From Clostridia bacterium (lineage in GTDB: Bacteria; Bacillota; Clostridia; RGIG6154): 64,000 nucleotides of DNA. The first letter of the stretch is position 1, and the number at the start of each line of letters is the position of its first letter. The notes under the pieces are model-generated. The model saw only the letters and a program-made list of their open reading frames with translations, was not told the origin of the DNA and ran no database searches. The translations under genes and the position numbers were made by a program. Shown in pieces: positions 4,891 through 21,714 of the stretch. Location: the NCBI GenBank assembly GCA_045589295.1, contig JAZNOU010000012.1, forward strand, positions 165,353 to 229,352. The letters run 5' to 3'.

Positions 4891-4917
4891 AAAGCAGTCA
4901 GTTGACTGCTTTTTTTC
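4891..4917. terminator. bidirectional intrinsic terminator
   Basis: A perfect hairpin (AGCAGTCA-GT-TGACTGCT) is flanked by an A-run and a T-run between convergent genes. Confidence 0.6.
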
Positions 4918-5413
4918 TTATCAGACTCATTATTGCTAGAGTTATTAAAATTCCTGAAATACTACCAAAAGAGTCAATTAAAATGTCGGTAAACTGACAA
5001 CTTCTTCCTGGCACAAATGTCTGGTGGAGTTCATCAGTTATTGCATAAAAAACACAAAATGTGAGAGAAATAATTACATTTTTTTGAAGGTAGTGGTTGC
5101 CTTTTTTAATAAAGCTTAGTGAATTGGATATAAAGATTGAAACTCCCAGTAACAAAAAAAGAAAAAAGTGTGCGGTTTTTCTTACATAATTATTTATCTT
5201 TTTGACAAGCTCATTTTTTTCTTTTTTAGAAATATTTTTGTTTTTGGTGACTGCAGTTACGATTTTTTTGGTTACTGATTTGCTTACTAAGTTTGATTTT
5301 GTGGCGGGTTGTGATGAAAAATAAAAGATAGACGCCATAATAATCAGTGTGAAAAAGTATGCAATTATTTTTTTGATAATCAGATGCGGATTTGTTCCTG
5401 AAATCATAGTCAC
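4898..5413 (-). CDS. VanZ family membrane protein
   Basis: It carries the FSSQP motif and the C-terminal TDELHQTFVPGRSxQFTDILIDSFG motif typical of VanZ-like proteins. It overlaps the upstream FHA gene by 4 nt. Confidence 0.75.
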   Translation of the reverse strand: MTMISGTNPHLIIKKIIAYFFTLIIMASIFYFSSQPATKSNLVSKSVTKKIVTAVTKNKNISKKEKNELVKKINNYVRKTAHFFLFLLLGVSIFISNSLSFIKKGNHYLQKNVIISLTFCVFYAITDELHQTFVPGRSCQFTDILIDSFGSISGILITLAIMSLIRKKAVN

Positions 5414-5859
5414 TCCTCGTCAAACCTTGGTTCAACAAATAAGAACATAAGCTGACCGATTTTTATAAGATCTCCCGTTTTTATGGCACAAGGCTCCAAC
5501 CCTATGCGCTCGCCGTTTACGAATGTGCCGTTTGTTGTGTCATTATCAACAATTGTCCACATGTCGTGCGATTTTAAAAACTGTGCATGCACAGTTGACA
5601 TAAAAGGGTCTGAAATTATAATATCGTTTTTTCCACCTCTGCCTATTGTGAACTTGTGCTTGATATTATAACTTTCCTCAACTCTGAAAGGAACGGATTT
5701 TATTTTGTTTATCAGTTTGATGTATGGTGTGTCATCTAAAACGGTCCCCATACGTGAGTGCTTGATATCAAGGTAAATCAGTCTTATAATGCTGAACATA
5801 AAAAAGTAAATAGCTGTTACAAACAGGTATTTTAAAAGACCTGAAACAAGCTCAAACAT
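5410..5859 (-). CDS. FHA domain-containing membrane-anchored protein
   Basis: An N-terminal TM is followed by an FHA core (FTIGRGGKNDIIISDPFMSTVHAQF...NGTFVNGERI). Confidence 0.8.
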   Translation of the reverse strand: MFELVSGLLKYLFVTAIYFFMFSIIRLIYLDIKHSRMGTVLDDTPYIKLINKIKSVPFRVEESYNIKHKFTIGRGGKNDIIISDPFMSTVHAQFLKSHDMWTIVDNDTTNGTFVNGERIGLEPCAIKTGDLIKIGQLMFLFVEPRFDEE

Positions 5860-5999
5860 AAAAAATCCCTCACTTTCTTTTTAATTAGTATAATATAAGT
5901 ATTGAAAAAATGCAAATTTTTTATTATAATATATAATAGTGTAAATTTTAACTTTAATATTTACATAATTTGCCGGACATATTAAAGTCAGGAGGGAAT

Positions 6000-7451
6000 A
6001 TGGTGCGAAAAAATATTTCAAATCAGGAAGATCCTAATTTAAACAGCTCGGGGCAGACAACAGAGGTAGCGCAGGAAACAAAAGTAAAAAAAGCTCCGAC
6101 AAAATTTCAAAAAGCAATTGAATATATCAAGGATAATTCTACAGTGGCAAAAAGCACAGTGATAGGGTTCTTTGTTTTTGCTGTCATATTGGCAATCGTT
6201 TCAAATATTCAGGTGGGTTATGCAGTTGTTTTTAATGATAAGACAATAGGTTATGTTGCGCACAAAGACACTGCACTTGAAAAAATTGATTTTATTTGCA
6301 AAGAAATTACCGACAATATAGCAGACACCGAAACAAATGTTACTGCTTCTTTGGTGCCTTCTGTTGCACCAGCCTTTAAATTTATAGCAGAGGACGAAAT
6401 AGAACAGGCTATCAAAGAGGAGATTTCGTATTATGTTAATGCAGCGGCTGTTTATATAGATGGAGAGTTTGCGTTTGCAGCAAAAGATGCAACTGAGGCA
6501 GAAACGTTTATTAAAAAATATCAGGAAATGGTTTGCGGTGACGGAACTATTATTTCTTCTCAAAGCGAAAACAAAGTAACATATAAAGATGAAAAGGTTA
6601 TTCTTACAGAAGTGCTGGACGAGCAGGCGGCAATGTCAAGACTTGCGGGAACTGACTCAAAAGATGGACTTTATACTGTTGAAGAAGGAGATACACTGTG
6701 GAATATTGGTATTGATAACGATATTGCAACAGACTATCTTATGGTGCTTAACAACTTAGATAGTGAGGTTCTTCAGATAGGAACTGTTTTGAGGGTAAAA
6801 TATCCAGAACCTATAATTGATGTTAAGGTAGTAAAAGATATTACCTATACCGAAATTCATCCCTACGAAACTGAGAAAAGATATGACAAAAATCTCAACG
6901 TCGGAACATATCGAACATATCAAAAGGGCTCTAACGGCGAAACAAGGGTAAGAGCAATTGTAACTTATGTTAACGGCAATGAAATTGAACGTGAAATTAC
7001 AGAAAAAACTGTTTTAAGTGAGCCTGTTACAGAAATTCTTTTGGTAGGAACAAAGCCAAAGCCAAAAACTGCGGCGACAGGAAAGTTTGCAAGACCTATT
7101 TCGGGTGGATATGTGTCGTCCTCATTTGGCAACAGAAGCCGTGGATATCATACAGGCGTTGACTGGGCAGTTTCATATGGAACACCTATTTATGCATCAG
7201 ACGGCGGAACAGTTACAGCCGCCGGATGGGGTGGTGGTTACGGCAAAATGGTTAAAATTAATCATGGTAATGGGTATGAAACTTTGTATGCCCATTGCTC
7301 AAAGCTTGTCGTATCAAGTGGAAAGAAAGTTGCAAAGGGGCAGCTTATTGGTTATGTAGGTAGTACAGGAAACAGCACAGGACCTCATTTGCATTTTGAA
7401 ATAAGAAGAAATGGTTCATACCTCAATCCTACTAAATATTGTGGTGAATAA
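6000..7451 (+). CDS. LysM domain-containing M23 family metallopeptidase
   Basis: An ATG at 6000 follows an AGGAGGG ribosome-binding site. The protein has an N-terminal TM, a LysM domain (YTVEEGDTLWNIG) and a C-terminal M23 domain (HTGVDW...HLHFEIR). Confidence 0.85.
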   Translation: MVRKNISNQEDPNLNSSGQTTEVAQETKVKKAPTKFQKAIEYIKDNSTVAKSTVIGFFVFAVILAIVSNIQVGYAVVFNDKTIGYVAHKDTALEKIDFICKEITDNIADTETNVTASLVPSVAPAFKFIAEDEIEQAIKEEISYYVNAAAVYIDGEFAFAAKDATEAETFIKKYQEMVCGDGTIISSQSENKVTYKDEKVILTEVLDEQAAMSRLAGTDSKDGLYTVEEGDTLWNIGIDNDIATDYLMVLNNLDSEVLQIGTVLRVKYPEPIIDVKVVKDITYTEIHPYETEKRYDKNLNVGTYRTYQKGSNGETRVRAIVTYVNGNEIEREITEKTVLSEPVTEILLVGTKPKPKTAATGKFARPISGGYVSSSFGNRSRGYHTGVDWAVSYGTPIYASDGGTVTAAGWGGGYGKMVKINHGNGYETLYAHCSKLVVSSGKKVAKGQLIGYVGSTGNSTGPHLHFEIRRNGSYLNPTKYCGE

Positions 7452-7523
7452 AACTTTAAGCAATCTCTCTTGTATGGGGGGATTGCTTGTAGGTTTTTGT
7501 CGCAAAATTTTTAGAAAAAACAC

Positions 7524-7552
7524 TTGATTTTGGTAAGTAGGTGTGCTATAAT
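7524..7552 (+). promoter_or_regulatory. consensus sigma-A promoter TTGATT-17-TATAAT
   Basis: An exact TATAAT at 7547-7552 sits 17 nt downstream of TTGATT, with an A-tract upstream. It lies 60 nt upstream of the PqqD-family gene. Confidence 0.6.
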
Positions 7553-7615
7553 TATCTTACGTAGGTATAACTGTGGATTTTTTTGTGTACCAATCAATTT
7601 TTGGAAGGTGAACAG

Positions 7616-7879
7616 ATGCGACTAAAAGATGGCTTTTTATTAAGAAATGTTGCCGGTGAATATGTTGTTGTCCCAACAGGGAACAGCATGGTTGACTTTA
7701 AGGCTATGATATCTCTTAATGAAACAGGCGCGTTTTTATGGGAGCAGCTTTTAGCAGACAAATCAGAGCAGCAACTTTTAGATGCGCTTTTGAGTGAGTA
7801 TGACGTTGATGAAAAAACCGCATCTGAAGATATTAAAGAGTTTGTAGAGTTGCTTAAAGAAAAGAACCTGTTGGTATGA
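7616..7879 (+). CDS. PqqD family protein (RiPP recognition element, lasso B1-like)
   Basis: The 87-aa product has the PqqD/RRE fold signature (MRLKDGFLLRNVAGEYVVVP...LNETGAFLWEQL...). A ribosome-binding site AAGGTG lies 5 nt upstream of the ATG, and the gene overlaps the next by ATGA. Confidence 0.8.
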   Translation: MRLKDGFLLRNVAGEYVVVPTGNSMVDFKAMISLNETGAFLWEQLLADKSEQQLLDALLSEYDVDEKTASEDIKEFVELLKEKNLLV

Positions 7880-8328
7880 ATATGAAAAAAGTCTTAAGTA
7901 CAAAAGAGATTATGCCTCTTGTGGGAGACATCTTAAAAACGGCGGAGCGAGTTAGGTTTACCGTTAAGGGAAACAGTATGTATCCGCTTTTAAGGTCGGA
8001 CCGCGACGAGGTAGAGGTTATAAAGTGCGATAGTATAGGCAAGTATGATATTGTTCTTTACAAAAGAAACAATGGTGACTATATTCTTCACAGGGTGCTC
8101 AAAGAAAATGACAACGCACTTTCAATAGCAGGCGATTTTGAACAGGAACTTGAAAGCCCTGTGTATAAAGATCAGGTTATTGCAAAAGTTGTCAATATAA
8201 TAAGAGACGGTAAAAAAGTTATCTCTTGTAACAACGGCATCTATAAAACGTATTGTGTTTTGTGGGCGGCGGTATTTAAAAACAGACGAAGGATACTTAA
8301 AATACTTAAGAAACTGAGGAAATGGTGA
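7876..8328 (+). CDS. S26/S24-type serine peptidase, Ser/His (SipW/ER-type-like), no TM anchor
   Basis: It has a GNSMYPLL nucleophile box and an IVLYK...YILHRVL box, with His where bacterial signal peptidase I (SPase I) has Lys. There is no N-terminal hydrophobic anchor, and the C-terminus is an amphipathic basic tail. Confidence 0.6.
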   Translation: MNMKKVLSTKEIMPLVGDILKTAERVRFTVKGNSMYPLLRSDRDEVEVIKCDSIGKYDIVLYKRNNGDYILHRVLKENDNALSIAGDFEQELESPVYKDQVIAKVVNIIRDGKKVISCNNGIYKTYCVLWAAVFKNRRRILKILKKLRKW

Positions 8329-9998
8329 AATTGAAAAATAAAGATATCGCTAAACAATGGTTTTTTAAGAATATCAGACAGGTTTTTGGCGGAGTTTTTG
8401 CTCTTACTTTTGTTTCTGTCCTGATTAATGTGTCAGGTGTCGGATTTGCGATTTCTTCAAAACGTGTTTTGGATGTAGCATCTAATTCAACTGAAGGGAA
8501 CTTATTAACAGAAGCTTTAGTTTTGTTTTCTTTGGTTGTGATTCAGCTTATTTTGCAAATTATCCTCTCTAAGTGCTATGTTAAAACGCAGGCACAAACG
8601 AGAATTAAAATAAAAACCGACTTGTTTGAAAGCATAGTGAAAAAAGATTTAACTGAGGTGAATTTTTATCACTCGGGTGAGTTGGTTAACAGGCTCACAA
8701 GCGACGTTAACGTTGTGTCAAACGCGGTGGTGGATATTTTACCAACTGCGATAGCACTTAGCATTGGGGTTTGTTTAAGCTTTGGGGTATTGTTCAGTTT
8801 GGACCCTGTTTATGCAGTTATTTATCTGATAGTTGCACCCCTTGCACTTTTAACTGCAAGATTTTTTAGAAAAAGGCTTAAAGTGTTACATAAAGAGTCG
8901 GTTTCAACCGACGGGATTGTTAAATCGTTTATGCAGGAATGTTTCAGAAATCTGCTCGTGGTCAAGGCTTTTGAAAAAGAAGATCACGTAACCGAAAAGT
9001 GTAATGCTTATCAACTTGCTAACTACAAGGTTTTGATAAAGAAAAACGATATCAGCATTTTAGCGAACGTAATGTTCTTTTTGTCCATTACTGCAGGCTA
9101 TTATTTAACTCTTATTTGGGGGGCATACAAGCTTTCGATAGGAATTTTAACAATCGGTGAAATTGTTGCAATGCTTGAACTTGTTTCACAAATTCAGTCC
9201 CCGCTAAAGTCATTATCATCACTTCTTCCGCAGTATTATTCGGCGGTAGCTTCATCTGAAAGAATTTTGGAGCTTGAAGATTTGCCTGATGAAAAACAAC
9301 TAAATGCAAGCAGTGAAAAAGTTGATGACTTTTCAAAGCTTGTCATTGACAATATGTCTTTTTCGTATGATGAAAGTTTAATTTTTGATAAAGCTTCCTG
9401 CGAAATTGAAAAAGGCGACATCGTCGGAATTTACGGCGAGTCGGGAATTGGAAAAAGCACACTTATAAAACTTATTTTAGGAGTGCTTAAGCCCAATAAG
9501 GGCGAGATTTACATAGTTGACCCGAGCGGTCAAAAGATTTTGGTTGATACAGAAACTAAAAACCTGTTTTCTTATGTGCCTCAAGGTAACCTGATATTAT
9601 CTGGCACAATAGCAGAAAACGTGGTTTTCGGTTCTGACAACATAGATATAAAGCTGGTTGAACGTTGCATCAAAGTGTCGCAGCTTGATGAAATGGTCAG
9701 TCAGTTGCCACTAAAACTTGATACAGGTTTGGGTGAAGGCGGCCTAGGTCTTTCTGAAGGACAGGTACAGCGATTATCTATCGCAAGGGCATTGTATCGG
9801 AATTCTGAAATACTGTTGCTTGATGAAGCAACGTCGGCTCTTGACCGAGAAACCGAAATCAGGGTGTTGGAGGAAATGAAGAGTTTGAATAAGACTTGTC
9901 TTTTCATAACTCACCGCAAAGAAGCACTTTTAAGTTGCAGCAAGCTTTTAAGTGTGAAAAACGGAAAGATTTCCATCGACAGGCAGGAAATTTTATAA
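8322..9998 (+). CDS. ABC transporter, fused permease/ATP-binding exporter
   Basis: The 558-aa product has six TM helices followed by a nucleotide-binding domain with Walker A (GESGIGKST), an LSEGQVQRLSIARAL signature and Walker B (LLLDEATSALD). Confidence 0.85.
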   Translation: MVKLKNKDIAKQWFFKNIRQVFGGVFALTFVSVLINVSGVGFAISSKRVLDVASNSTEGNLLTEALVLFSLVVIQLILQIILSKCYVKTQAQTRIKIKTDLFESIVKKDLTEVNFYHSGELVNRLTSDVNVVSNAVVDILPTAIALSIGVCLSFGVLFSLDPVYAVIYLIVAPLALLTARFFRKRLKVLHKESVSTDGIVKSFMQECFRNLLVVKAFEKEDHVTEKCNAYQLANYKVLIKKNDISILANVMFFLSITAGYYLTLIWGAYKLSIGILTIGEIVAMLELVSQIQSPLKSLSSLLPQYYSAVASSERILELEDLPDEKQLNASSEKVDDFSKLVIDNMSFSYDESLIFDKASCEIEKGDIVGIYGESGIGKSTLIKLILGVLKPNKGEIYIVDPSGQKILVDTETKNLFSYVPQGNLILSGTIAENVVFGSDNIDIKLVERCIKVSQLDEMVSQLPLKLDTGLGEGGLGLSEGQVQRLSIARALYRNSEILLLDEATSALDRETEIRVLEEMKSLNKTCLFITHRKEALLSCSKLLSVKNGKISIDRQEIL

Positions 9999-10020
9999 AG
10001 TTTGTTTGGGAGGAATAAAG

Positions 10021-10977
10021 ATGAAATGTAAGAGAATTATCAAAGTAGTAAGTGCGCTTGCATTAACTGTAGCTTTGTTAGTATCTGCTAGTGTTGTTTC
10101 ATTTGCTGCAACATATACAACACAGACAACATACATTAATGAAGATACTATTGAAGTTATTTCAAGAGCTACAGGCTTAAACGATGGCGAAATGGCTACT
10201 TATGTTGCTTACAGAAACGGCGAGTTCTCAGAAACTAATGCAGTTTACATCGACCAGGCAACAGAGCAGGACAATGCAGTTGAATTTAGATATCAGGCAG
10301 ATTCTGATGATGTAAAAGCAACAGTATTGTTCGGCGGTGAAAGCGCACCGAATACATTGGAGCCGGATAAAGTTGGTCATAAAATTACAGTATATGTTAA
10401 CGAAGTGGCTCAAGGCGACCAAGTTGCTGCTTATGCTGTAGCTGACTATGACGGCGAATATCTCGCAAGAGAATTTTCGGTAAACATTGAAAACGGAAAA
10501 GCTATTAAAAAAGTTGAATTCGCAGCTGATGGAGCTGAAAAAACAACTGTAGAAGCTTGGTATGTTAAAAATGGCGCGTTGGTTGTATTAAGCCGTGTTA
10601 TTGAATCAGATGGTTCATTGTACATTACAGCAGAGGATGCAACCATTTCTGTTAAACTTGGTGCTGTTACTGGTACTGAAAACACAATTACTGCATTTGC
10701 CAAAGCAGTTTGCACAGATGATGCAGACTACGGAATCTTAATTGCGGACTCAGAAGTTGAAATCGAAGCTGCTGGTCGTATTGACTGGAAAGATGCTGAA
10801 GACTACACAACTCCGGTTTATTTCAATGCTTTAGGCAAAGGTAACAATGGTGTATTTGCAGTAGAAGTAACTGATGAAGACTGCTTTGTTGCAGGTAAAA
10901 GCTTTAATGTAAAAGCTTATGCTGATTCTGGAGAGACAGAAGTGTATTCAATTGATACTGTAACTGTAAGATTATAA
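10021..10977 (+). CDS. secreted acidic beta-rich protein with signal peptide (possible cognate of the adjacent peptidase)
   Basis: An ATG at 10021 follows a GGGAGG ribosome-binding site. The signal peptide ends at ...SFA/ATYTT. The protein has no recognisable enzymatic motifs. Confidence 0.55.
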   Translation: MKCKRIIKVVSALALTVALLVSASVVSFAATYTTQTTYINEDTIEVISRATGLNDGEMATYVAYRNGEFSETNAVYIDQATEQDNAVEFRYQADSDDVKATVLFGGESAPNTLEPDKVGHKITVYVNEVAQGDQVAAYAVADYDGEYLAREFSVNIENGKAIKKVEFAADGAEKTTVEAWYVKNGALVVLSRVIESDGSLYITAEDATISVKLGAVTGTENTITAFAKAVCTDDADYGILIADSEVEIEAAGRIDWKDAEDYTTPVYFNALGKGNNGVFAVEVTDEDCFVAGKSFNVKAYADSGETEVYSIDTVTVRL

Positions 10978-11024: not shown

Positions 11025-11186
11025 ATGAAAAATTATCAAAAACCTGTTTTAGAGGTTGTTGAATTAGCAGTTGCTGAAAATATCGCTGCATTAGTGCCGA
11101 AAACTATCTATAAAAGATCAGTTGGCAAGAAGATGGCTCAGGACACCAGAATAATGCTTGTAGAAGATTTAAGTAATCTTAGCTAA
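11025..11186 (+). CDS. 53-aa peptide with lasso-precursor-like leader motif (candidate RiPP precursor)
   Basis: Translation is MKNYQKPVLEVVELAVAENIAALVPKTIYKRSVGKKMAQDTRIMLVEDLSNLS. An AGGAGG ribosome-binding site lies 10 nt upstream, and the ORF sits between the exporter operon and the kinase gene. The ORF track missed it because it is under 60 aa. Confidence 0.5.
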   Translation: MKNYQKPVLEVVELAVAENIAALVPKTIYKRSVGKKMAQDTRIMLVEDLSNLS

Positions 11187-11235: not shown

Positions 11236-12111
11236 ATGCAATATACTGTCGCAGGTTTTAATATTGATGTTGTCAGTGAACATCCTTCTTATCTTTTTAT
11301 GAGACTCAAAGACTATGAAAGCACTTTTTCGGGGGAAGCAGACTTTACAGTCAGGTGTAAAGAAGAAAAAAATATCGCTCTCCCCGATGATATTGTGCTT
11401 ATAGGTCAAAGAGTCGGAAGATGGATATGGTTTGAAAAAAAAGATGGTACGCTCGGTGCGTACATAAAATATGACGATGTCGAAAACATTGCGGCATTGG
11501 CATTGTGGGATAAAGCTTTTAAAAATATTGAATTATCTGTTTATGATATTGAGCCATACGGCAATTTGCCAATAGCTCAAAGAATTTTTTATTTACTGGG
11601 AGATGTTATTGCATACTCGGTATTAAACTGCGGTGCAGGAGTTTTCCATTCTTCTGCGATAAGTTATAAAGGAAACGGGATTTTATTTTCCGCACCATCG
11701 GGAACAGGAAAATCCACACATACATCTTTATGGAAAGATGTTTTTGGTGATAATGTTGTTATATTTAATGACGATACACCAATACTTAAGATAGAAAATG
11801 ACGTTTGTTTTGCCTACGGCTCACCTTGGAGCGGCAAAACTGCGATTAATGAAAATATAAAGGTTCCGCTTAAGGCGATTGTATGCCTTGACAGAGCGCA
11901 GACCAATTCAATAAAAAGACTTACGGGGATTAGTGCTTTTTACAGAATTTTCAATGAAATGAGAAAGCCTCCGGTTGAGAGTCTTATGGACAAGAGTCTT
12001 ACGGTTATGGATAGTATTTTGCAGAAAGTTCCGGTTTACGAGCTTTTTTGCAATAAAAATAAAGATGCAGTAATGACAGTTTTTGACGCTGTCGGTTTTG
12101 ACAAATTATAA
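11236..12111 (+). CDS. HPr kinase/phosphorylase-related kinase (HprK C-terminal-like P-loop)
   Basis: The segment GILFSAPSGTGKSTHTSLW...VVIFNDDTPIL matches the HprK P-loop and aspartate-pair architecture. The N-terminal 130 aa are unrelated to authentic HprK. Confidence 0.6.
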   Translation: MQYTVAGFNIDVVSEHPSYLFMRLKDYESTFSGEADFTVRCKEEKNIALPDDIVLIGQRVGRWIWFEKKDGTLGAYIKYDDVENIAALALWDKAFKNIELSVYDIEPYGNLPIAQRIFYLLGDVIAYSVLNCGAGVFHSSAISYKGNGILFSAPSGTGKSTHTSLWKDVFGDNVVIFNDDTPILKIENDVCFAYGSPWSGKTAINENIKVPLKAIVCLDRAQTNSIKRLTGISAFYRIFNEMRKPPVESLMDKSLTVMDSILQKVPVYELFCNKNKDAVMTVFDAVGFDKL

Positions 12112-12125
12112 GAGAGGTAAAAAGG

Positions 12126-13736
12126 ATGAATAAAAAAATATTTTTTGGTACACTTTTGTGTATGGTTTTATGTTTAAGCATTGCGACATGCGCATTTGCC
12201 GCAACATTTTCTGATTTATCAAAAAGCCACTGGGCGTACGATAATATTGTCGAATTAAGTTCACAGGGGGTTATAAACGGATACTCTGACGGTACATTTC
12301 GCCCCGAAGCATATGTTACGAGAGCTGAATTTGTTAAGCTTATAGGTACAATCGATACAATCAAAAATGGTGACTTTGACGACCTACCTAAAACTCACTG
12401 GGCATATGAATACGTTATGAAATCAGGGGTTGATGTTGACAGAAAGAACTTTCGCCCTGATGAAAATATCACAAGAGCAGAAGTTTTAGATATATTGTGG
12501 AACAGATATGGAACTGAAACAGATGCAAAAGTTCCCGGAATTATAGAAAATCAGCACAAAAATGTTCCGGCTGTTACCTGGGGATATTCTTACGGACTTA
12601 TGATAGGCGATGACGGAATAAATTTAAGACTTAGTGATGATTTGTCAAGAGCAGAAGCGGTTACACTTATTTTGCGCTCCAGAAAGATTGATACATCAAA
12701 GCAAAAGTTGCTTGCAGACAATGTAAACAGCAAGATTTTGGAAAATATTTTTAATGATACAATGCTTTTTGATAAACCTTACAGTGAAAATGAAACAGTT
12801 ACAGTTGGCGAAATTTCACACGCAGCTTTAAGACTTGCATATCAAACAAAGCAAATTCCATATAACAAGGATTTGTATATCGGCGATCCACAATTTGATG
12901 GTGATTATGCACTTGATATTGCTCACATGGCAAAACAAGTATTTGGTGAAGCTTCAAACAACAAAGAGTTTGCAGAAGGCAAGGCAAATCAACAGCAGGT
13001 TTTGGCAGCACTTATGTATGGTTATATGTTTAAAGCAAACGACTCGCCTGTAATCGGCAGAATGGATGATTACTACAAAGATGCAGTTGTTGCAAAAGGT
13101 CTTACAATGCAAAATATGTTACTTACATACACTAACAGACGCGGCATTTTTGCAAGCGCTGACGGACTTTTGCATAATGACAAAGCTGTAACACATAAAG
13201 AAATTGCATCAATTCTTTTGCAACTTGATAACTTTACAGGTTCACAAATAAGCTATTCAAACGGCAAAGAATCGGATGAAAAATTAAGCACAGATGCTTA
13301 TATTTACGAAAATGCAGATGATGGATTTGGAATTTTATTAAAAGGCATTCCAAACGTAGTTTACGAGACACCAATGAAAGCTCCTGCTAAAGAGTTTACA
13401 GTTTTTGCAAGAGATTTCTTTGAAATATTTACTACTCTTTCAGATGGCATTAAGGCAAAAGCCAAAAGCGAGGGCGCTGAAATTGTTTTAAGAGTTTATC
13501 CAACACTTATTGCAAATGCAGGCAATGAAGTTATTATGAGAACAAAGATATATGTAGCTTCAAATCCAAAAGGCTTAAATCTTGGTGAAATTATCGGTAA
13601 GTGCGATATGAATACAGATATTAAAGCCTTGGAAGGTAAAACGTATTTTGTTGATATTTCAACCAATCATCCATTGGATGACATGTACATCAATCCTGAA
13701 AATGTAAGCTTAAAACAGCTTATATGGAATGATTAA
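12126..13736 (+). CDS. SLH-domain cell-surface protein
   Basis: A signal peptide is followed by three S-layer-homology repeats (FSDLSKSHWAYDNIVEL...TRAEFVKLI and others) and an unassigned C-terminal domain. Confidence 0.7.
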   Translation: MNKKIFFGTLLCMVLCLSIATCAFAATFSDLSKSHWAYDNIVELSSQGVINGYSDGTFRPEAYVTRAEFVKLIGTIDTIKNGDFDDLPKTHWAYEYVMKSGVDVDRKNFRPDENITRAEVLDILWNRYGTETDAKVPGIIENQHKNVPAVTWGYSYGLMIGDDGINLRLSDDLSRAEAVTLILRSRKIDTSKQKLLADNVNSKILENIFNDTMLFDKPYSENETVTVGEISHAALRLAYQTKQIPYNKDLYIGDPQFDGDYALDIAHMAKQVFGEASNNKEFAEGKANQQQVLAALMYGYMFKANDSPVIGRMDDYYKDAVVAKGLTMQNMLLTYTNRRGIFASADGLLHNDKAVTHKEIASILLQLDNFTGSQISYSNGKESDEKLSTDAYIYENADDGFGILLKGIPNVVYETPMKAPAKEFTVFARDFFEIFTTLSDGIKAKAKSEGAEIVLRVYPTLIANAGNEVIMRTKIYVASNPKGLNLGEIIGKCDMNTDIKALEGKTYFVDISTNHPLDDMYINPENVSLKQLIWND

Positions 13737-13766: not shown

Positions 13767-14459
13767 ATGGAAGAAAGAGAAATTGATATCTGGGGACTAA
13801 TACAGTCAATAATTAAGAGATGGTGGATTGTTGCTATTATCACTGTTATAGTCGGAACAACAGGTTTTACATATTCAAAATTTGCAATCACTCCTTTGTA
13901 TGCGGCAAAAGGAACACTTTATATTACCGTAGACAATACTGCCTCCTTGCAAGGTGGAACAAGTCTTGATTACAACTCAATTTTGGCGGCACAGGAGCTT
14001 ACAAAAACATATTCTTTAATACTTTCAAGTAATACATTCTACAGAATTGTTGCTGCAGAAAGCGGACTTGACTACAGCTATAAAGAAATTTCAAGAATGG
14101 TTACAATGGGCAACGAAAATGACAGTGAAATTATGTCGATTACAGCAAAATGTGCAAATAGAGAACACGCAGCTATTATTGTTGAAACTATACTTAACAA
14201 TGCACAGGCAGAAATTTCAAGAGTGGTTATTGGCGGAAGTGTAAGAATTATTGACCATCCTGAACTTCCTAACGGACACTCATATCCTAACGTAACAAAG
14301 AACACATTCTTATGCTTGGCGCTTGGTGTTATCTTAGGTTGTGCTCTTGCAATTTTCATTGAATGGCTTGATGATACAATCAAGAGTGATGAGGATGTGC
14401 TGAAGTTTGGCATCCCGATATTAGCAGTTATCCCGCTTTTAGAAACAAAAAGCGAGTAA
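13767..14459 (+). CDS. Wzz/CpsC/YwqC-family polysaccharide chain-length (tyrosine-kinase modulator) protein
   Basis: It has two TM helices, a periplasmic-type loop and a C-terminal DDTIKSDEDVLKFGIPILAVIP segment typical of CapA/YwqC. No cognate BY-kinase gene follows. Confidence 0.8.
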   Translation: MEEREIDIWGLIQSIIKRWWIVAIITVIVGTTGFTYSKFAITPLYAAKGTLYITVDNTASLQGGTSLDYNSILAAQELTKTYSLILSSNTFYRIVAAESGLDYSYKEISRMVTMGNENDSEIMSITAKCANREHAAIIVETILNNAQAEISRVVIGGSVRIIDHPELPNGHSYPNVTKNTFLCLALGVILGCALAIFIEWLDDTIKSDEDVLKFGIPILAVIPLLETKSE

Positions 14460-14487: not shown

Positions 14488-17400
14488 GTGAGAGAAGATA
14501 TGAGAAAGCGTGTAAAATCGCTTATTGGCATGATTATTGCAATGACTATGATCTTGCCGACGGCTTTGCCGGTGACAACTCCTGTTTCGGCACAAAATTC
14601 CTACGGATTTAATGATTTTCCTACCGGATGGTCAGCACCTGCAATGTCACATGCAGTTGAAAACGGATTGATATACGGAAAATCCGAAGACCGTATATGT
14701 CCTACAGATAATTTAACTAGAGCGGAAATGGCTACAATCATTAACCGTGCATTCGGTGCTACGGTGGAAAAGGATATTTCGGCATTTTCAGATGTAGCTC
14801 AGTCAGCTTGGTATTACAATGAAATAAAAAAGGCATACAATATGCAAACCCTTTATGGTGATGCAGGCGGCACTATGCGTCCCGATGCCTTTATTATAAG
14901 AGAAGAAGCCATAGCGATTGTTGCAAGAGCTATGGTTTTAAGTGGTTATTCGGCTTCTAATCTTGATAAGTTTAATGATAAAGACCAAATTGCAGATTGG
15001 GCAGTAGATCCGCTGGCTTCAATGGTAGCAAACGGCTACGTTAACGGCGATGAAAAGTCTAATATGAATCCGAAGGCATTCATTACCAGAGAAGAATTTG
15101 CTCAGCTTTTACATAATATTGTTAAGCATTATTATGATGCTGAAGATGGCGTAACAACATTCAACGGGAATGTTATGATTAATGAACCGACCACTTCATT
15201 GAGTGATTTGGTTGTTAATGGCGATCTTATTTTGGGTGATGGTGTTGGAACAAGCAACATTGTTCTAAAAAATGTTAAAGTAACAGGTCGTATCCTTATC
15301 AGAGGCGCAACCCATATTTCGTTTAAAAACAGCAACTTTGGTGGCGGCGTTACAGTTAAAAATGTTAATGATGTGGTACATTTTGATCATTTTAGTGATG
15401 AAGTGCATTTTAATGATATGCAAGATCACACAGAGGTCACATTTAAGAAGAAAACTACCGGCGGTGGCGGTGGTGGAACTCCTCCGGCACCTACAACTGC
15501 TAGTTATAAAGTGGAACACTATCAGGAAGCTTTGGATGGAAGTTTTGCAGTTTTTGAAACAGAAACCCTTTCAGGCAGTATTGGTGCAAGTGTTACAGCA
15601 GTAGCTAAAACCTATACAGGTTTTAGCGAAGATACTGTAAATCCATCAAGAGTTGCAACAGGCACTGTTGTATCTGATGGTTCTTTGACTCTTAAGCTTT
15701 TTTACACAAGAAACAGTTATACAGTAACATTTGATGCTCGCGGCGGTGCTATTTCAGGCACACCGAAAACTGTTTATAAATTCGGTGAAACATTAGAACT
15801 CCCTGTACCTACAAAAGGAACAGACACATTTGGCGGGTGGTGGACAGCGCTAAATGGAACAGGAACAAAAATTGAAAATACAAGCGTATTGGGAACAGAT
15901 ATTACATCTGCTGCCATTACTGTTTATGCGCATTGGATACCTGCAGCTCCGACTCCCACAGCTACGACGTTTACAGTAAAACATTTGTTTGAAAAACTTG
16001 ACGGAACTTATGAAACTAAAGCAGAACGCGGAGATGAACTTAACGTTGCCGGTGATATAACGGTTTCAATCGTTCCTGAAAATTACAGAAATCCGATTGC
16101 GGGATTTAATTATTTTGATTATAGCTTTGACGGAACAGACAATGCAGGCATGCCAAAAGCAGATGGAAGCACTGTTCTTAATATCCGTTATAATAGAAAG
16201 AGCTACGACATCGTATATAACTATGGTGAAGCAGGCGGAAGCAACACAGTTTCATTTAGATATGGTGAAAGTGTAGATCTTTCAATTCCGACAGTTACAC
16301 CACCTGTAGGTAAGTATTTTGCAGGTTGGTATGATGCACTTGTTGGCGGCACACAGGTAACATTCCTTGAAACACCTGTTGGCGGAACAACAATTTATGC
16401 ACGTTGGGCAGAAGATGTTGGAGTTTATACTGTTGAATTCTATCAGCAGAATTTGGATGGAACTTACACCCAAGTAACTGCGGACACTTTATCAGGACTT
16501 ACTGGTGTAGTAGGAACAGATGTAAGTGTGGATAAAAATTCGACCACAATCAAAGATAAGTATATAGGTTTTGAAGTTAATGAAACAGAAAGTACACTCA
16601 CACAAAGACTTGCTAAAACAGGCACAGTACTTAAAGTTTATTATGACAGAAAGATTTATACAATCGATTACGACTTTGATGGCGGTTATGCAGATGGAAC
16701 ATATACTGATACATTTATGTATGGCCAAACCGTTGCGCTTGCCAAAGGTAAAAATAGCAATGGCAAGGTTTTAGGCGGTTGGTTTACCGATTTAGATGGT
16801 AATGGCACACAGGTAACAGATACTGCAAATATTGATGCTATCTTAGGCGCGCTCACAGGCAATACAATCACACTTTATGCTTATTGGGTAGAAGAAATAG
16901 GCGAATATTCTGTTGAATTCTATCAGGAAACTTTAGATGGTGCTGATTATACTCTTGTTGCAGCTGACACTATTGTCGGTCTTACAGGAACAGTCGGCGA
17001 GAAAGTAGCTATTGATGCAACAATAGATGAAGTTAAGAATAAATATTCAGGCTTTACAGTAAACGTTGCAAAGAGTGAACTTTCAAAAACACTTGCTAAA
17101 GAGGGCACAGTTCTTAAAGTTTACTACGACAGAAATATTTATACCTTGTATTACAATTATAGCGATGCTGATACTGTGGGAATTGGAAGTGCGACCTTTA
17201 AACATGGTCAGAATATCACATTCCCTGATGAATCAACATTCAATAAAGAATCATTTAGCTTTGCAGGCTGGTACACAACCCAGGACTTTAAAGATGATGA
17301 AGTTGTAGATACAGGCAATACAATCGAACAGATTATAGACATTGCAAATGGTGAAACAGAAACTACCATATATGCTAAATGGGCAAAATTCTTCACAGTA

Positions 17401-20400
17401 ACATTCAGAGAGGGTGCAAAAATAGGAACGTACACAGTTGATCCTGCTGTTGAAAACACAGTTCCGTATTCTGCATTCCCTTACGACAAACTTGTTGAAC
17501 GTTATAAGACAGGTTACTTTGAAGATGAATCTGTATCTTCTGTATACGCAGGTAATGAGTATAAACACACATTTGAAGGACAGTGGTACTACACAGATGA
17601 AAACGGCAACGATGTCGTATTTACAGACGAAACAATTGTAGACCGCGATCTTACAGTAAGATATAAATTCAGATATGTGAGACTGGAACTTTTTGTTGAG
17701 AAATTAGGTCATAACCTTGTACTTGAGGTGCCTTTTGAAGAAAGTACAAGAATTATCGACACAATTAAAGATGAATTGTTTGTAAATCAGGAAAAAATAC
17801 TTTTGGTTGCAGATGAAGTTGATGCAAGAAGCAAGTTTATGGCGTTGAACCTTAAGTTGGTTAACTTCCTTGACAGTAAGGGAATTGAAATAGTTGAACC
17901 TGGTATGATTTTCGCCGAAGATGGCGAAATCTTAAAGCAACATATCAGATTTAATGCATTTGCATATCTTGATGAAGCAAGTGTTAAGACTGTTGTTGTA
18001 AACGCAATCAGAACAACATTCAAAAATGATCCTTTAAGAATGCGTGGCGTTATCGATGAAATGATGACAGAACAGGATGAAGACGTTGTTAACCTTATGG
18101 ATACAATGCTTGTATCTATGCTTTCAGGTTCAGATGCTGCAAGAATCAAGGGTATTATTGCAGATGCGGTGGAAGATGCGGTTGCAAATGATACAACCGG
18201 TGAGTTCAAAAACAAAATTAAAGACATCATAACAACACAGCTTGATGCAGGTAATACAACAGTTGAAACAAGCATTAAAAAGGCAATTAAAGATTACTTT
18301 ATGAACAGCGCAAATGATGCTAAAATCAGAGAAATCGTTTCAGACCTTATTGATGATGCTTATAAAACTGATGATGAAACCGATCCGGTAAGGAATTTCG
18401 TGAAGAGTTACATAAAGACATATCTTAACGAAAACCCAACAGTTTTAGATGATATGATCAGAGAAATGGGCGAAAATTTAGATCCTAATGATCCTAACGA
18501 TGCGCACATTATTGATCTTATTCATGAAGTTTTAGACGAAAATGTAATATATCTTGAAAAACTTGTTGATGATGCTATCAAGAACCTTAAAAACACAATA
18601 GGCGAACCAATACACAGCTTTATCGTTGATGCCATCACAACAGAGCTTTCAACTAATGCTGCTGAGCTTGATATTTTGATTGATGAAATCTCAAATGCAA
18701 ACGTAACTGATATTAAGTCGGTGCTTGCAACAGTTATGGAAGATAACGATACATTTGAAATTATTGTTAAAGATGCAATTGCCGATGAAGCGGTATTTAA
18801 TAAGGTTATCAAAGCTGCTCTTGACAACGCAAGTGTATTTGATGCAATCGTAAGCGAACTTTGCAGCGGCGATACGAGCTTCTATAATATGCTTGTAGAC
18901 ATTGCACTTTCGTCAGATTCACTTAAGGGCGAGGTTAAAAATGCAGTTGTTAATAATGATGATGCACTTATAAGCGTACTTAATGAAGTGGCATCTGATG
19001 CTTCACTTAAAGCTGAAATGGTTGAAGAAATTTTAGTTGCTTCTGATGCTAAGCTTAAAGATCAGCTTACAAGCCCGCTTTCTATAACATCGGATTATTA
19101 TGCAGACGTTAAAGCTCAGGCACTCAGTCAGGCTGAAACTGAAATAATAGGCATAATCGAAACAGGTATCAATGAAGATGAACACCCAGATTACTGGCCG
19201 ATTGCTTTTGAAAAGGCTATGGAAATAGCAGAAGCAAGAGTTAGACAGGATCTTATTGCTGGCAGTGTTGATCCTAACGGTTCACTTTGGGATACAATGT
19301 ATGCAGAGGCAATGGCTCAAGCAGCAATTGATGTCAAAGCAGAGCTTAACGGAGGTATTACTGATGCTTCAGAATACTACGCAGCTGCTGTAAATGGTGC
19401 TAAAGAGCAGGCAGAAAAAGAAATTACAGACTTACTTTCAACAGGTATTACTGAGGGTAGCAAGTACTGGGATGTTGCATATAGTACTGCAAAAGGAATT
19501 CTTAGAACCGAAATTGACACATCATTCGATTCAAAGATTGTAGAAATCAAGACAGATGCTAATCTTAAAGCACAGGTGGTAGCTTGGGCACAGACAGCGA
19601 TTAATAACACTAATATAGAAAGTGCTATTAAGAACTATGCTAAAGGCTTGGCTACAAGCACAGACTCTGCGGATGTTAGCCTTAGAACATCAATTATTGA
19701 CACTGTAATCAATACAGCAGATAGCTTAGAACCAGGTAAAAAAGAGACATTGGTTAGTGATATTATCACAGAGCTTTTGAAACCTGCAAATGCAACAGTT
19801 AAAGAGACTGTTGAAAACAAGGCTATTGAAGTATTAAACAGAGCTGAAAACAATGCACTTAAAACTACGCTTATCGATAGTGTGCTTGAAGATATCTTTG
19901 CTGACAACACACTTAAAGGCGATTTGATTGCAAGACTTAAGACTAAGGTTAAGGACCCTGCACAGGAAGCATTTAAGTTAACTGTTATTAGCGAAGCTAT
20001 CAATGCAGTTGTTAATGATAGCTCAGTTAATGCAAGGGCAGTTATAATAATAAATGACCTGATTGAAACAGATACTGCATTTAAGGCAGACATTATAGAG
20101 CACATCGTCGACTATATCTTAGAAGATGCTACTGTTAGAGCTGAAGCTATGGAAAAGGTTGTCGAAATGATTGAAGATCCGGAAGATGACAGCCATAAGC
20201 AGGAAGCAATCGACTTTGCGTTTGACACCCTTAAGGGCGACACAACGAAACGTGCAGAAATTGTGGATAAGTTCTTAACAAACATCTTAGGTAATAATGA
20301 CAAGAGAGAAGATATGGCAACAGAAGTTATCGACATTATGTTCTCTAACGATACCTTAAGAAATAGGATTTTAGATCTTGGGTTCGAACAGATGTTCGCA

Positions 20401-21714
20401 GGTGAAGATACAATTGCAGAAATTGTTTCACTTGCACTCGACGAACTCATTAGTGACGATACCGTAAGACGTGATATGATTATTGCAGTAATCAGCACTG
20501 AAAGCGGAAGAAGAAAGATTTTAGACATTCTCTTTGATGAACTTGAAAGGGATCCTGAGTTCATTGACGAAATAGTTGACATCGCAATGAACGGCAAGTA
20601 TGGCGATTTGGTTGATATATTTGTATCCGACCTTATTTACAACGGAAAGATTCAGATTAATCCAGACAACAGACAAATCGCAGAAGAAATCGTTCTTCCA
20701 ATGTTAGACGACATTTCTCTTGATACTGTTTTAGGCAAATTGCCCGCAAAAGTTACAGATGTTTTACCAACATCTGTAATCGAAAAGGCGTTTAACAAGT
20801 TTAAGTCAAAAGCAAGAGAACTTTTGGTTGAAGGTATAAATGAAGCTAAAGAAGGCAACTGGAAAGACATTTCAGTTATGGTGGACAACGAGCTTGATAT
20901 AATTAATGAAGTTTTAGTTCCGCTTTATAATAAAGTATTCCCGAAAGTTGTTGACAAAGCTGAGGACTTCTACTACTACAACGAAAATGTTTACTTAAAA
21001 GCAATAGTTGACATGATTGACCCTGAGTTCTTGCTTGATAACACAAAACCGGCATCAATTGGTGGAACAGGATACAGATTAAGAACAACAGAAGAATATT
21101 ATGAAATTATCAGAAATATCTCTGTTTTAGTTGATGATGCAGCAAACTGGTATATGGAAAACATTTCTGATGACCAGATTAACGGTGCTATTGACAAAGT
21201 TGCAGGAAAAGTTAATACTTTACTTGCAAAGGTTAATGGACTTGTGGGCGGAAGAATACCAATGTCTAAGATTGACAAAGTGGTTGAATACACCAAGAAG
21301 GCTCTTGATAAGAGAGAAAGCGTTTATAATATTACAACAAATGGTGTATTTGAAAAGGTTGACAAGGTTTATAACAAGCTTATTGAAATTGTTAAAAACA
21401 AAACCGGTGTTGATATTACTAAGTCTACTACGATAGAAGTTACTTTTGACGGAAGTGAAATCGACGTAAACGGTAAGGATGTCAACATTGACAATCGTAA
21501 GATAAGCATCAGTGTTAAAGGTTACAAATTTGAACTTGATTCAGAATCAATCACAGCACTTAACAAAACTGTTAATATTGACAGATTTGTTCAAAAAGCT
21601 GCCGATTTATTCGGAACAAGAAGTGTAACATTTAAAATTATAAATGATGCTCCGTACAGCTACGGTGCTTATGTGGGCAATAACTACATAAAGTTAGCTG
21701 CTGAGTACAAATAA
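14488..21714 (+). CDS. giant (2408 aa) SLH-anchored surface protein with Listeria-Bacteroides-type repeat modules and long acidic helical C-terminal region
   Basis: A signal peptide and three SLH repeats are followed by a Gly6 linker. At least six Y-x-V-x-F...GWY/W repeat modules come next, and then an about 1,300-aa D/E-rich low-complexity region. Confidence 0.85.
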   Translation: MREDMRKRVKSLIGMIIAMTMILPTALPVTTPVSAQNSYGFNDFPTGWSAPAMSHAVENGLIYGKSEDRICPTDNLTRAEMATIINRAFGATVEKDISAFSDVAQSAWYYNEIKKAYNMQTLYGDAGGTMRPDAFIIREEAIAIVARAMVLSGYSASNLDKFNDKDQIADWAVDPLASMVANGYVNGDEKSNMNPKAFITREEFAQLLHNIVKHYYDAEDGVTTFNGNVMINEPTTSLSDLVVNGDLILGDGVGTSNIVLKNVKVTGRILIRGATHISFKNSNFGGGVTVKNVNDVVHFDHFSDEVHFNDMQDHTEVTFKKKTTGGGGGGTPPAPTTASYKVEHYQEALDGSFAVFETETLSGSIGASVTAVAKTYTGFSEDTVNPSRVATGTVVSDGSLTLKLFYTRNSYTVTFDARGGAISGTPKTVYKFGETLELPVPTKGTDTFGGWWTALNGTGTKIENTSVLGTDITSAAITVYAHWIPAAPTPTATTFTVKHLFEKLDGTYETKAERGDELNVAGDITVSIVPENYRNPIAGFNYFDYSFDGTDNAGMPKADGSTVLNIRYNRKSYDIVYNYGEAGGSNTVSFRYGESVDLSIPTVTPPVGKYFAGWYDALVGGTQVTFLETPVGGTTIYARWAEDVGVYTVEFYQQNLDGTYTQVTADTLSGLTGVVGTDVSVDKNSTTIKDKYIGFEVNETESTLTQRLAKTGTVLKVYYDRKIYTIDYDFDGGYADGTYTDTFMYGQTVALAKGKNSNGKVLGGWFTDLDGNGTQVTDTANIDAILGALTGNTITLYAYWVEEIGEYSVEFYQETLDGADYTLVAADTIVGLTGTVGEKVAIDATIDEVKNKYSGFTVNVAKSELSKTLAKEGTVLKVYYDRNIYTLYYNYSDADTVGIGSATFKHGQNITFPDESTFNKESFSFAGWYTTQDFKDDEVVDTGNTIEQIIDIANGETETTIYAKWAKFFTVTFREGAKIGTYTVDPAVENTVPYSAFPYDKLVERYKTGYFEDESVSSVYAGNEYKHTFEGQWYYTDENGNDVVFTDETIVDRDLTVRYKFRYVRLELFVEKLGHNLVLEVPFEESTRIIDTIKDELFVNQEKILLVADEVDARSKFMALNLKLVNFLDSKGIEIVEPGMIFAEDGEILKQHIRFNAFAYLDEASVKTVVVNAIRTTFKNDPLRMRGVIDEMMTEQDEDVVNLMDTMLVSMLSGSDAARIKGIIADAVEDAVANDTTGEFKNKIKDIITTQLDAGNTTVETSIKKAIKDYFMNSANDAKIREIVSDLIDDAYKTDDETDPVRNFVKSYIKTYLNENPTVLDDMIREMGENLDPNDPNDAHIIDLIHEVLDENVIYLEKLVDDAIKNLKNTIGEPIHSFIVDAITTELSTNAAELDILIDEISNANVTDIKSVLATVMEDNDTFEIIVKDAIADEAVFNKVIKAALDNASVFDAIVSELCSGDTSFYNMLVDIALSSDSLKGEVKNAVVNNDDALISVLNEVASDASLKAEMVEEILVASDAKLKDQLTSPLSITSDYYADVKAQALSQAETEIIGIIETGINEDEHPDYWPIAFEKAMEIAEARVRQDLIAGSVDPNGSLWDTMYAEAMAQAAIDVKAELNGGITDASEYYAAAVNGAKEQAEKEITDLLSTGITEGSKYWDVAYSTAKGILRTEIDTSFDSKIVEIKTDANLKAQVVAWAQTAINNTNIESAIKNYAKGLATSTDSADVSLRTSIIDTVINTADSLEPGKKETLVSDIITELLKPANATVKETVENKAIEVLNRAENNALKTTLIDSVLEDIFADNTLKGDLIARLKTKVKDPAQEAFKLTVISEAINAVVNDSSVNARAVIIINDLIETDTAFKADIIEHIVDYILEDATVRAEAMEKVVEMIEDPEDDSHKQEAIDFAFDTLKGDTTKRAEIVDKFLTNILGNNDKREDMATEVIDIMFSNDTLRNRILDLGFEQMFAGEDTIAEIVSLALDELISDDTVRRDMIIAVISTESGRRKILDILFDELERDPEFIDEIVDIAMNGKYGDLVDIFVSDLIYNGKIQINPDNRQIAEEIVLPMLDDISLDTVLGKLPAKVTDVLPTSVIEKAFNKFKSKARELLVEGINEAKEGNWKDISVMVDNELDIINEVLVPLYNKVFPKVVDKAEDFYYYNENVYLKAIVDMIDPEFLLDNTKPASIGGTGYRLRTTEEYYEIIRNISVLVDDAANWYMENISDDQINGAIDKVAGKVNTLLAKVNGLVGGRIPMSKIDKVVEYTKKALDKRESVYNITTNGVFEKVDKVYNKLIEIVKNKTGVDITKSTTIEVTFDGSEIDVNGKDVNIDNRKISISVKGYKFELDSESITALNKTVNIDRFVQKAADLFGTRSVTFKIINDAPYSYGAYVGNNYIKLAAEYK

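Follow-up and report, generated by a model that had tools for sequence, protein, structure and literature searches.

A putative LppK-type peptide kinase in a cyclase-less, LPP-like gene cluster of a Clostridia bacterium

An HprK-type kinase gene with an unrelated N-terminal half

The gene of interest occupies positions 11236–12111 of a 64,000 nt stretch of contig JAZNOU010000012.1 (Clostridia bacterium, assembly GCA_045589295.1, positions 165,353–229,352 of the forward strand; hereafter, the window). An initial annotation described its product as a divergent relative of HPr kinase (HprK), lying between a candidate precursor peptide and a set of surface-layer genes. The analysis presented here groups the kinase with LppK, the HprK-like kinase of the linear polyphosphorylated peptide (LPP) clusters, and suggests that it probably phosphorylates the neighboring peptide in a ribosomally made, post-translationally modified peptide (RiPP) pathway of the LPP type, without a cyclase. 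The gene and its catalytic elements are as follows.

11236–12111, + strand: LppK-like HprK-fold kinase gene, 291 aa, ATG start (motifs, alignment, profile, structure and tree)
11647–11649, + strand: His138 codon, catalytic His of the His-Lys-Asp-Asp set (invariant in the 34-homologue alignment)
11689–11718, + strand: P-loop SAPSGTGKST, kinase residues 152–161, including Lys159 (invariant in the same alignment)
11767–11775, + strand: Asn178-Asp179-Asp180 (NDD) of the kinase (invariant in the same alignment)

The protein is made of two dissimilar parts. Its C-terminal half carries the HprK-type P-loop and the downstream DD pair, as initially annotated. Residues that do not vary in an alignment of 34 homologues, each 34–77% identical to the window protein, include H138, K159 and the remainder of the P-loop, N178, D179, D180, and a PW-GK motif (P197, W198, G200, K201). 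The N-terminal ~130 residues were said to be unlike the regulatory domain of HprK, and two results agree with this: (i) the open reading frame (ORF) matches neither Hpr_kinase_N nor Hpr_kinase_C, nor any other family, in the local copy of Pfam, and (ii) a model of the kinase superposes on HprK over the C-terminal domain only, the N-terminal domain not being superposable. The kinase is an HprK-type catalytic half attached to an unrelated N-terminal segment. This segment is clade-specific, being alignable among closer relatives only; we speculate that it may be the element that sets the choice of phosphorylation site.

The kinase has no signal peptide, while two of its neighbors, a 323-aa protein and a protein with S-layer homology (SLH) domains, are secreted. 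More than 2000 homologues or protein clusters were obtained in a database search, nearly all of them unnamed proteins from Clostridia metagenome bins.

The kinase is of the LppK type

Four lines of evidence bear on the family to which the kinase belongs. Firstly, the exact database match of the window protein and all of its homologues carry the label PF27840 ("ScmC"), which is taken from precomputed database annotations and not from the local Pfam scan. The same label is carried by the LppK orthologues (260–262 aa) of all four Bacilli lpp loci that were retrieved through homologues of the peptidase LppS. All three lasso peptide kinases encoded next to lpp loci are annotated instead with PF07475 (Hpr_kinase_C), one of them on a weak match; in our own Pfam scan, one of the three matches this family (33.9 bits). 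Secondly, TIGR04249 is the sole NCBIfam match of the window kinase (residues 118–231, E=7e-5, 22.2 bits against a cutoff of 125) and the best match of LppK (E=5e-10), while a lasso kinase scores best with the model of authentic HprK. Thirdly, BLASTP aligns the window kinase with an LppK orthologue over residues 136–275 (28% identity, E=4e-10), and with a lasso kinase over the P-loop alone (E=0.008). A profile of the kinase family likewise gives LppK 58.7 bits, in an alignment that reaches back to profile position 51, and a lasso kinase 24.3 bits.

Finally, a neighbor-joining tree (a distance method; 42 sequences, 257 columns, 100 bootstraps) unites all Clostridial kinases in one clade (95/100) that is sister to a monophyletic LppK (100/100), with the lasso kinases outside. 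The lasso kinases in this tree are those adjoining lpp loci, which stand in for PadeK and ThcoK. The position of the kinase relative to PadeK-type enzymes and to HprK, raised in the initial annotation, is addressed for the former by the tree, through these stand-ins; authentic HprK is not among the 42 sequences and was judged by profiles. No HprK was recovered in PDB sequence searches with either the kinase protein or the family profile, even at E<=10, so the clustering with authentic HprK that would have argued against a peptide kinase was not found. Together, these comparisons assign the kinase to the LppK type (ScmC family), and to neither authentic HprK nor the PadeK-type lasso kinases.

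Three family assignments were considered and rejected. These are (i) authentic HprK (no Hpr_kinase_N plus Hpr_kinase_C, and no sequence similarity to solved HprK/P structures), (ii) a PadeK-type lasso kinase (no PF07475 match, a separate branch of the tree, and no lasso cyclase or B2 protease in the window), and (iii) the ScmC of the SynChlorMet (SCM) cassette, the TIGR04249 equivalog, whose cutoff lies far above the score obtained.

ScmC resembles the window kinase in also being paired with a PqqD-like protein. No radical-SAM/SPASM protein of the ScmE or ScmF kind is found among the genes annotated in and around the cluster, the remainder of the window not having been scanned for them, and a literature search for the SynChlorMet cassette returned no paper. 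ATP/GTP-dependent PEP carboxykinase is also among the nearest known systems. At the sequence level, the window kinase has no detectable relationship to HprK/P, from which it differs further in its N-terminal domain, genomic context and predicted substrate.

The precursor peptide and its conserved serine

A small gene directly precedes the kinase gene.

11025–11186, + strand: 53-aa precursor peptide with leader motif Y4-x-x-P7-x-L9 and Ser53 as the last residue (strong Shine-Dalgarno sequence; homologues)

Homologues of the peptide occur at the same position in 17 distinct loci. In the sub-clade of loci that share the gene order of the window (defined below), its N-terminal half is conserved as MKxYxKPxhxVhEL...ENIAA(L)VPxTxYK. 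Since positional homologues share this strongly conserved half, the 53-aa ORF is a real gene. Residues 4–9, YQKPVL, match the motif bound by RiPP recognition elements (RREs), [Y/W]xxPx[L/V/I]. A sequence search of the PDB with the peptide gave nothing relevant.

A database search with the 53-mer yielded 41 distinct close homologues, and these behave very differently along their length. Residues 1–31 are almost invariant, while the segment from residue 32 to the penultimate position has a mean pairwise identity of only 47% (minimum 14%). This variable tail nevertheless ends in Ser in 41/41 homologues, 16 of which have no other Ser in the peptide. The five more distant Congzhengia-type peptides, and that of locus L007 (L-numbers denote the retrieved related kinase loci), likewise end in Ser. 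Ser32 is present in only 16/41. The kinase gene does follow a candidate precursor ending in Ser, as initially proposed, and the conservation of this residue across a variable tail favors both the adjacent peptide as the probable substrate and its C-terminal Ser as the probable target.

The position of Ser shifts between related peptides, as is seen when residues are counted from the Pro of YxxP (P+n). LPP precursors of Bacilli have Ser at P+15 in 7/7 cases and no conserved last residue. Sister Clostridial peptides, from clusters that begin with the kinase gene, have Ser at P+16 in 8/9 cases (the sole Ser in three), and none of the nine ends in Ser. In the sub-clade of the window, P+15/P+16 are Ala/Leu or Ala/Val, and the last residue of most peptides is Ser. 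The acceptor serine thus appears to have moved, in this one sub-clade, from the leader-core junction to the C-terminus. If so, the system is a naturally occurring test case for site selection by peptide kinases of the HprK fold.

A C-terminal site would be the one used by lasso peptide kinases, which gives a simple prediction for phosphorylation, namely S53. PadeK, ThcoK and SyanK act on linear lasso precursors, to whose C-terminal Ser they add one or several phosphates; a His-Lys-Asp-Asp set is essential in these kinases, and the C-terminal Ser is extremely conserved among the otherwise dissimilar precursors associated with them (PMC9266682). The window system shares with them (i) the HprK-like fold, (ii) the His-Lys-Asp-Asp set, invariant in the window family as H138, K159, D179 and D180, and (iii) a peptide family with the same pattern of conserved C-terminal Ser and variable tail. 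It differs in the absence from the window kinase of the PF07475/TIGR00679-like signatures that go with lasso kinases, in its separate tree branch and alignment limited to the P-loop, and in having no cyclase or B2 in the window.

The kinase gene lies in a maturation operon that resembles LPP clusters

Upstream of the peptide lies a series of genes that the initial annotation, which named the peptide and the surface-layer genes, had left out. They make the locus a complete maturation operon.

7457–7489, + strand: terminator-like hairpin closing the upstream M23-peptidase gene, 14-pair stem then T run (consensus scan; pattern match only)
7524–7552, + strand: sigma-70-like promoter candidate TTGATT-17-TATAAT with TG, just 5' of the PqqD gene (10/12 match; pattern match only)
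7616–7879, + strand: PqqD-family RRE, LppB/B1-like (PF05402, E=4.9e-19)
7876–8328, + strand: archaeal-type signal-peptidase-I-like (S24/S26) putative leader peptidase, LppS-like (TIGR02228, E=1.8e-5, below cutoff)
8322–9998, + strand: MsbA-like ABC exporter, LppD-like (ABC_membrane plus ABC_tran; best NCBIfam model MsbA TIGR02203)
10006–10977, + strand: 323-aa secreted protein with N-terminal signal peptide (no Pfam or NCBIfam match; position conserved in the sub-clade)

Counted from the PqqD gene, the kinase gene is the sixth of a co-directional array in which some genes overlap and no gap exceeds 49 nt. The PqqD ORF begins at 7583 (TTG) in the program-made list; its homologues begin at MRLKDGF, corresponding to 7616. 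The protein matches lasso_PqqD models weakly, and its matches in the PDB are TbiB1, TfuB1, PbaB1 and LppB. For the S24/S26 protein, signal peptidase I models are the only family matches, with GNSMYP and HR motifs visible. A tblastn search of the window with LppD gives E=3e-42 at 8580–10037.

This gene content recalls the LPP clusters, reported from Bacilli only (Popov et al., Nat Commun 2026; PMC13381572). They consist of a precursor with leader YxxPxVLxHQxIxFETxxS, the HprK-like kinase LppK, the discrete RRE LppB, the peptidase LppS, the MsbA-like exporter LppD and the nucleotidyltransferase LppN, and they sit in capsule loci without a lasso cyclase (PMC13381572). When lppK is deleted, the precursor loses a +80 Da series, and the site of modification is core Ser3; S3A, S3T and S3Y variants are left unmodified by LppK, and cleavage by LppS requires LppB (PMC13381572).

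The window resembles these clusters in four respects: (i) the kinase family PF27840 and the best NCBIfam model TIGR04249 are common to the window kinase and LppK, (ii) both systems have a discrete PqqD-type RRE, a peptidase that resembles the archaeal type of signal peptidase I and an MsbA-like exporter, (iii) both precursors combine a YxxPx[LVI] leader and conserved N-terminus with a variable C-terminus, and (iv) both lack a macrolactam cyclase, which would leave the product linear, and lie in capsule or exopolysaccharide loci that include Wzz. H138, K159, D179 and D180 of the window kinase align with His, Lys, Asp and Glu in the LppK orthologue. LppK being experimentally a precursor Ser kinase, a role of the window kinase on the peptide is supported.

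There are also clear differences. The window kinase is 30 aa longer than LppK and has a different N-terminal part, the 28% identity extending over the catalytic domain. The gene order is RRE-peptidase-ABC-(323 aa)-precursor-kinase, against precursor-K-B-S-D-N in LPP clusters, and the window has no LppN. The window leader does not fit Px9Fx[T/A], having Ala at P+10 and Asn at P+12, and Ala takes the place of the acceptor Ser at P+15. The hosts are Clostridia in the one case and Bacilli in the other. The locus may thus be described, from its sequence, as a Clostridial, LppN-less, rearranged LPP-like cluster with an LppK-family kinase.

Comparison with the sequence similarity network (SSN) of the LPP paper, in which cluster 1 is LPP and edges are drawn at E<1e-23, refines this picture. 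The window RRE and peptidase are 34–44% identical (E=1e-28 to 4e-31; RRE 44%) to cluster 4 (Desulfosporosinus, Anaerocolumna), and 26–32% identical (E=6e-8 to 1e-11; RRE ~32%) to cluster 1. Over the handful of reference sequences compared, the best peptidase value is E=1e-11 against three cluster-1 sequences and 4e-31 against cluster 4, which would make the peptidase a relative outside cluster 1. The cluster-4 RREs are filed as "RRE others" and not analysed in the LPP paper, whose supplementary table groups TIGR04249 and TIGR04352 matches as "HprK kinase" (PMC13381572).

Related loci in other genomes

Among species-representative genomes, at least 555 stretches (from at least 600 candidates) were confirmed to encode a relative of the kinase. 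Partners were counted in the 43 species-level loci with at least 3.5 kb of flank on both sides: PqqD is present in 33, the peptidase in 27, the ABC exporter in 24, Wzz in 10 and the SLH protein in eight. The commonest order across related loci is kinase-PqqD-peptidase-ABC. The order of the window, PqqD-peptidase-ABC-323aa-peptide-kinase-SLH-Wzz, defines a sub-clade that comprises L001, L006–L009, L012, L013, L022, L071 and L087–L090, and all of these loci have a called gene for the small peptide in the corresponding place. The locus shows that a sister system of LPP is very widespread in Clostridia, those of the gut included.

By phmmer, homologues of the 323-aa protein occupy the corresponding place in L001, L003, L006, L008 and L022, and L087–L090 have there a protein of similar size without a Pfam match. 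It might be a partner, an immunity protein or a receptor. In the Bacilli lpp loci L086 and L091, a 570–573-aa protein without a Pfam match is encoded directly upstream of lppA.

A recognizable YxxP peptide was found in only 26/86 sources (85 loci plus the window, with a few duplicate loci). In sister loci with a full-length kinase (L014–L036), two leader hidden Markov models (HMMs) and inspection by eye revealed no precursor upstream of the kinase gene; in the remaining sister loci, the two HMMs found none anywhere in the locus. One sister system belongs to a cultured organism, Paenibacillus doosanensis (L029, 9855–12819). It is of the Clostridial type, with a peptide carrying Ser at P+16, the kinase, PqqD, the peptidase and an NTP_transf_5 protein, and follows a LuxR-type response regulator. 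The species could be used as an experimental model, and Clostridiales bacterium VE202-01 is a further culturable carrier of a sister system.

Alternative acceptors and substrates

We consider it probable that the kinase acts on the precursor peptide, and lean towards Ser53 as the acceptor. Several observations weigh against this reading or parts of it. Firstly, the similarity to LppK is low (28% identity) and confined, by BLAST, to the catalytic domain. Secondly, two LppN-type (NTP_transf_5) queries gave no match at E<=0.01 in a tblastn search of the whole window, and the RRE and peptidase would, by their sequences, fall in the unanalysed "RRE others" group. Thirdly, the S24/S26 peptidase gene is missing from five syntenic loci (L009, L012, L013, L071 and L090, mostly Congzhengia metagenome-assembled genomes), which keep PqqD, ABC, peptide, kinase, SLH and Wzz; because the gene is missing, leader removal in these would be by another enzyme, or would not occur. 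Fourthly, LppK acts on core Ser3 and not on a C-terminal Ser (PMC13381572). The initial annotation stated as a rule that HprK homologues of RiPP clusters phosphorylate the C-terminal Ser of the peptide; this is true of PadeK, ThcoK and SyanK, but LppK makes it incomplete. Finally, three sub-clade peptides (L001, L008 and L089) end in Ile or Ala, with Ser 3–6 residues from the end, and two other hydroxyl residues, Thr27 and Tyr29 of the motif P-K/T-T-x-Y-K, are invariant in 41/41 close homologues and in 13 aligned sub-clade peptides. Thr27 and Tyr29 remain alternatives as acceptors.

The last two points lead to the alternative with the best claim to attention, although we think it fairly unlikely: that the pathway and peptide are as proposed, and the phosphate goes to Thr27 or Tyr29, or to a Ser near the leader cleavage site as in LPP. 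LppK's target lies 15 residues after the Pro of YxxP, and the sister peptides' Ser at P+16 would fit the same pattern. The window sub-clade has Ala/Leu or Ala/Val at just these positions, and the nearby Ser32 is poorly conserved. Thr27 and Tyr29 are disfavored by the failure of LppK to accept either Thr or Tyr at position 3; all characterized HprK-family kinases cited here act on Ser, and in 16 peptides the terminal residue is the only Ser on offer. The two residues could also belong to a cleavage site or a recognition element, or be a second site of modification.

A second possibility is that the kinase has another substrate, such as the 323-aa protein or the SLH protein, or else an intermediate of the cell wall or of a polysaccharide. 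It draws on the tight synteny of 323-aa protein, peptide, kinase, 536-aa SLH protein and Wzz within the sub-clade, and on the roughly two thirds of related loci in which no recognizable precursor was found beside the kinase gene. We hold it to be very unlikely. The SLH protein and Wzz make no better substrates, because the constant partners in the wider family are the RRE, peptidase and exporter (33, 27 and 24 of 43 loci, against eight for SLH and 10 for Wzz). Moreover, the 323-aa and SLH proteins are secreted but the kinase lacks a signal peptide, and its characterized relative LppK acts on a precursor peptide. The initial annotation had taken the surface-layer genes to leave the substrate open; these neighbors are indeed there, but they are a conserved feature of such clusters and no evidence for a different substrate.

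Still less credit is given to a third alternative, in which the kinase is a lasso-tailoring enzyme of the PadeK/ThcoK type whose cyclase and B2 protease are encoded elsewhere in the genome. The YxxPxL leader is of lasso type, lasso B1 models and structures give the PqqD protein its best scores, and kinase-associated lasso precursors are characterized by a conserved C-terminal Ser. Neither an Asn-synthase-like lasso cyclase nor a transglutaminase-like B2 protease was detected by tblastn in the 64-kb window, and neither family appears among the genes called in L001 and L087–L090, which are syntenic. The kinase does not match PF07475 and groups with LppK in the tree. The macrolactam of lasso peptides needs Asp or Glu at core positions 7–9; after any plausible cleavage near ENIAA|LVPKTIYKR, the window peptide has neither there. 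Lastly, only the fold and P-loop speak for an authentic HPr kinase/phosphorylase acting in carbon catabolite control, a reading that is dismissed, given the absence of Hpr_kinase_C and Hpr_kinase_N matches and of any HprK in the PDB profile search, the N-terminal domain that cannot be superposed, and an operon that is a peptide-maturation cluster.

A proposed pathway

From the fold, catalytic residues, family, gene content and order, and patterns of conservation described above, we infer kinase activity on the peptide, its acceptor residue, a sequence of steps and any link to the S-layer and polysaccharide genes. Within the ScmC/LppK branch of the HprK-PEPCK fold, the enzyme would be a serine kinase that works in the cytoplasm and depends on ATP. 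By homology with the LPP and lasso systems, (i) the PqqD protein may bind Y4, P7 and L9 of the leader by strand addition, (ii) the kinase, through P-loop residue K159, H138 and D179/D180, would place one or more phosphates on the peptide, most likely on Ser53, (iii) the signal-peptidase-like S24/S26 protease would then remove the leader, with ENIAA|L as a candidate site, and (iv) the MsbA-like ABC transporter would export the product. Signal peptidases of this class prefer small residues at the cleavage site, which ENIAA|L would fit.

The cell-envelope neighborhood

The surface-layer genes named in the initial annotation lie directly downstream of the kinase gene.

12126–13736, + strand: 536-aa SLH-domain protein, directly 3' of the kinase gene (SLH, E=1.9e-23; orthologue conserved in the sub-clade)
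13767–14459, + strand: Wzz/CpsC-type polysaccharide chain-length determinant (PF02706, E=4e-11; TIGR01006, E=2e-30; conserved synteny)
14488–21714, + strand: 2408-aa SLH/Flg_new protein with Listeria-Bacteroides repeats (domain scan)

Orthologues of the 536-aa protein are encoded at the same position in 11 species loci and in L001/L002 (phmmer, E=1e-49 to 2e-264), and L087–L090 have an SLH protein of 531–545 aa there. The similarity goes beyond the mere presence of SLH domains: a genuine orthologue accompanies the kinase from locus to locus, and ~400 of its residues belong to no known domain. The Wzz gene always follows it.

Throughout the sub-clade, Wzz and the orthologous SLH protein follow the kinase, and this conservation argues for a functional link and against coincidence. 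LPP and paeninodin clusters also lie in capsule loci, and lppB is co-induced with a chain-length-regulator kinase gene, the biological role being left open (PMC13381572). The present locus adds weight to this puzzling association of phosphorylated ribosomal peptides with capsule or S-layer loci.

It is conceivable, although we think it distinctly unlikely, that the phosphorylated peptide serves specifically in building the cell envelope of gut Clostridia, and is not a secreted antibiotic or signal. On this reading, a phospho- or polyphospho-Ser at the C-terminus would prime or attach a glycan or secondary cell-wall polymer, or regulate a Wzz-dependent polymer bound by the SLH protein. If true, a role in the envelope would explain why the kinase, peptide, 323-aa protein, SLH protein and Wzz are kept as one block.

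Beyond these genes, a second SLH/Flg_new protein (521 aa) is encoded at 21780–23345, and the equivalents of the 2408-aa SLH gene in L087 and L088 encode 3539–4636 aa. The outer flanking genes are housekeeping genes (FtsW, MurA, FtsQ and SecDF). Just upstream of the operon (4898–5859, - strand; 5970–7451) lie VanZ-like, FHA-domain and LysM-G5-M23 peptidase genes; FHA domains bind phosphothreonine. The same three genes flank the loci L087 and L088.

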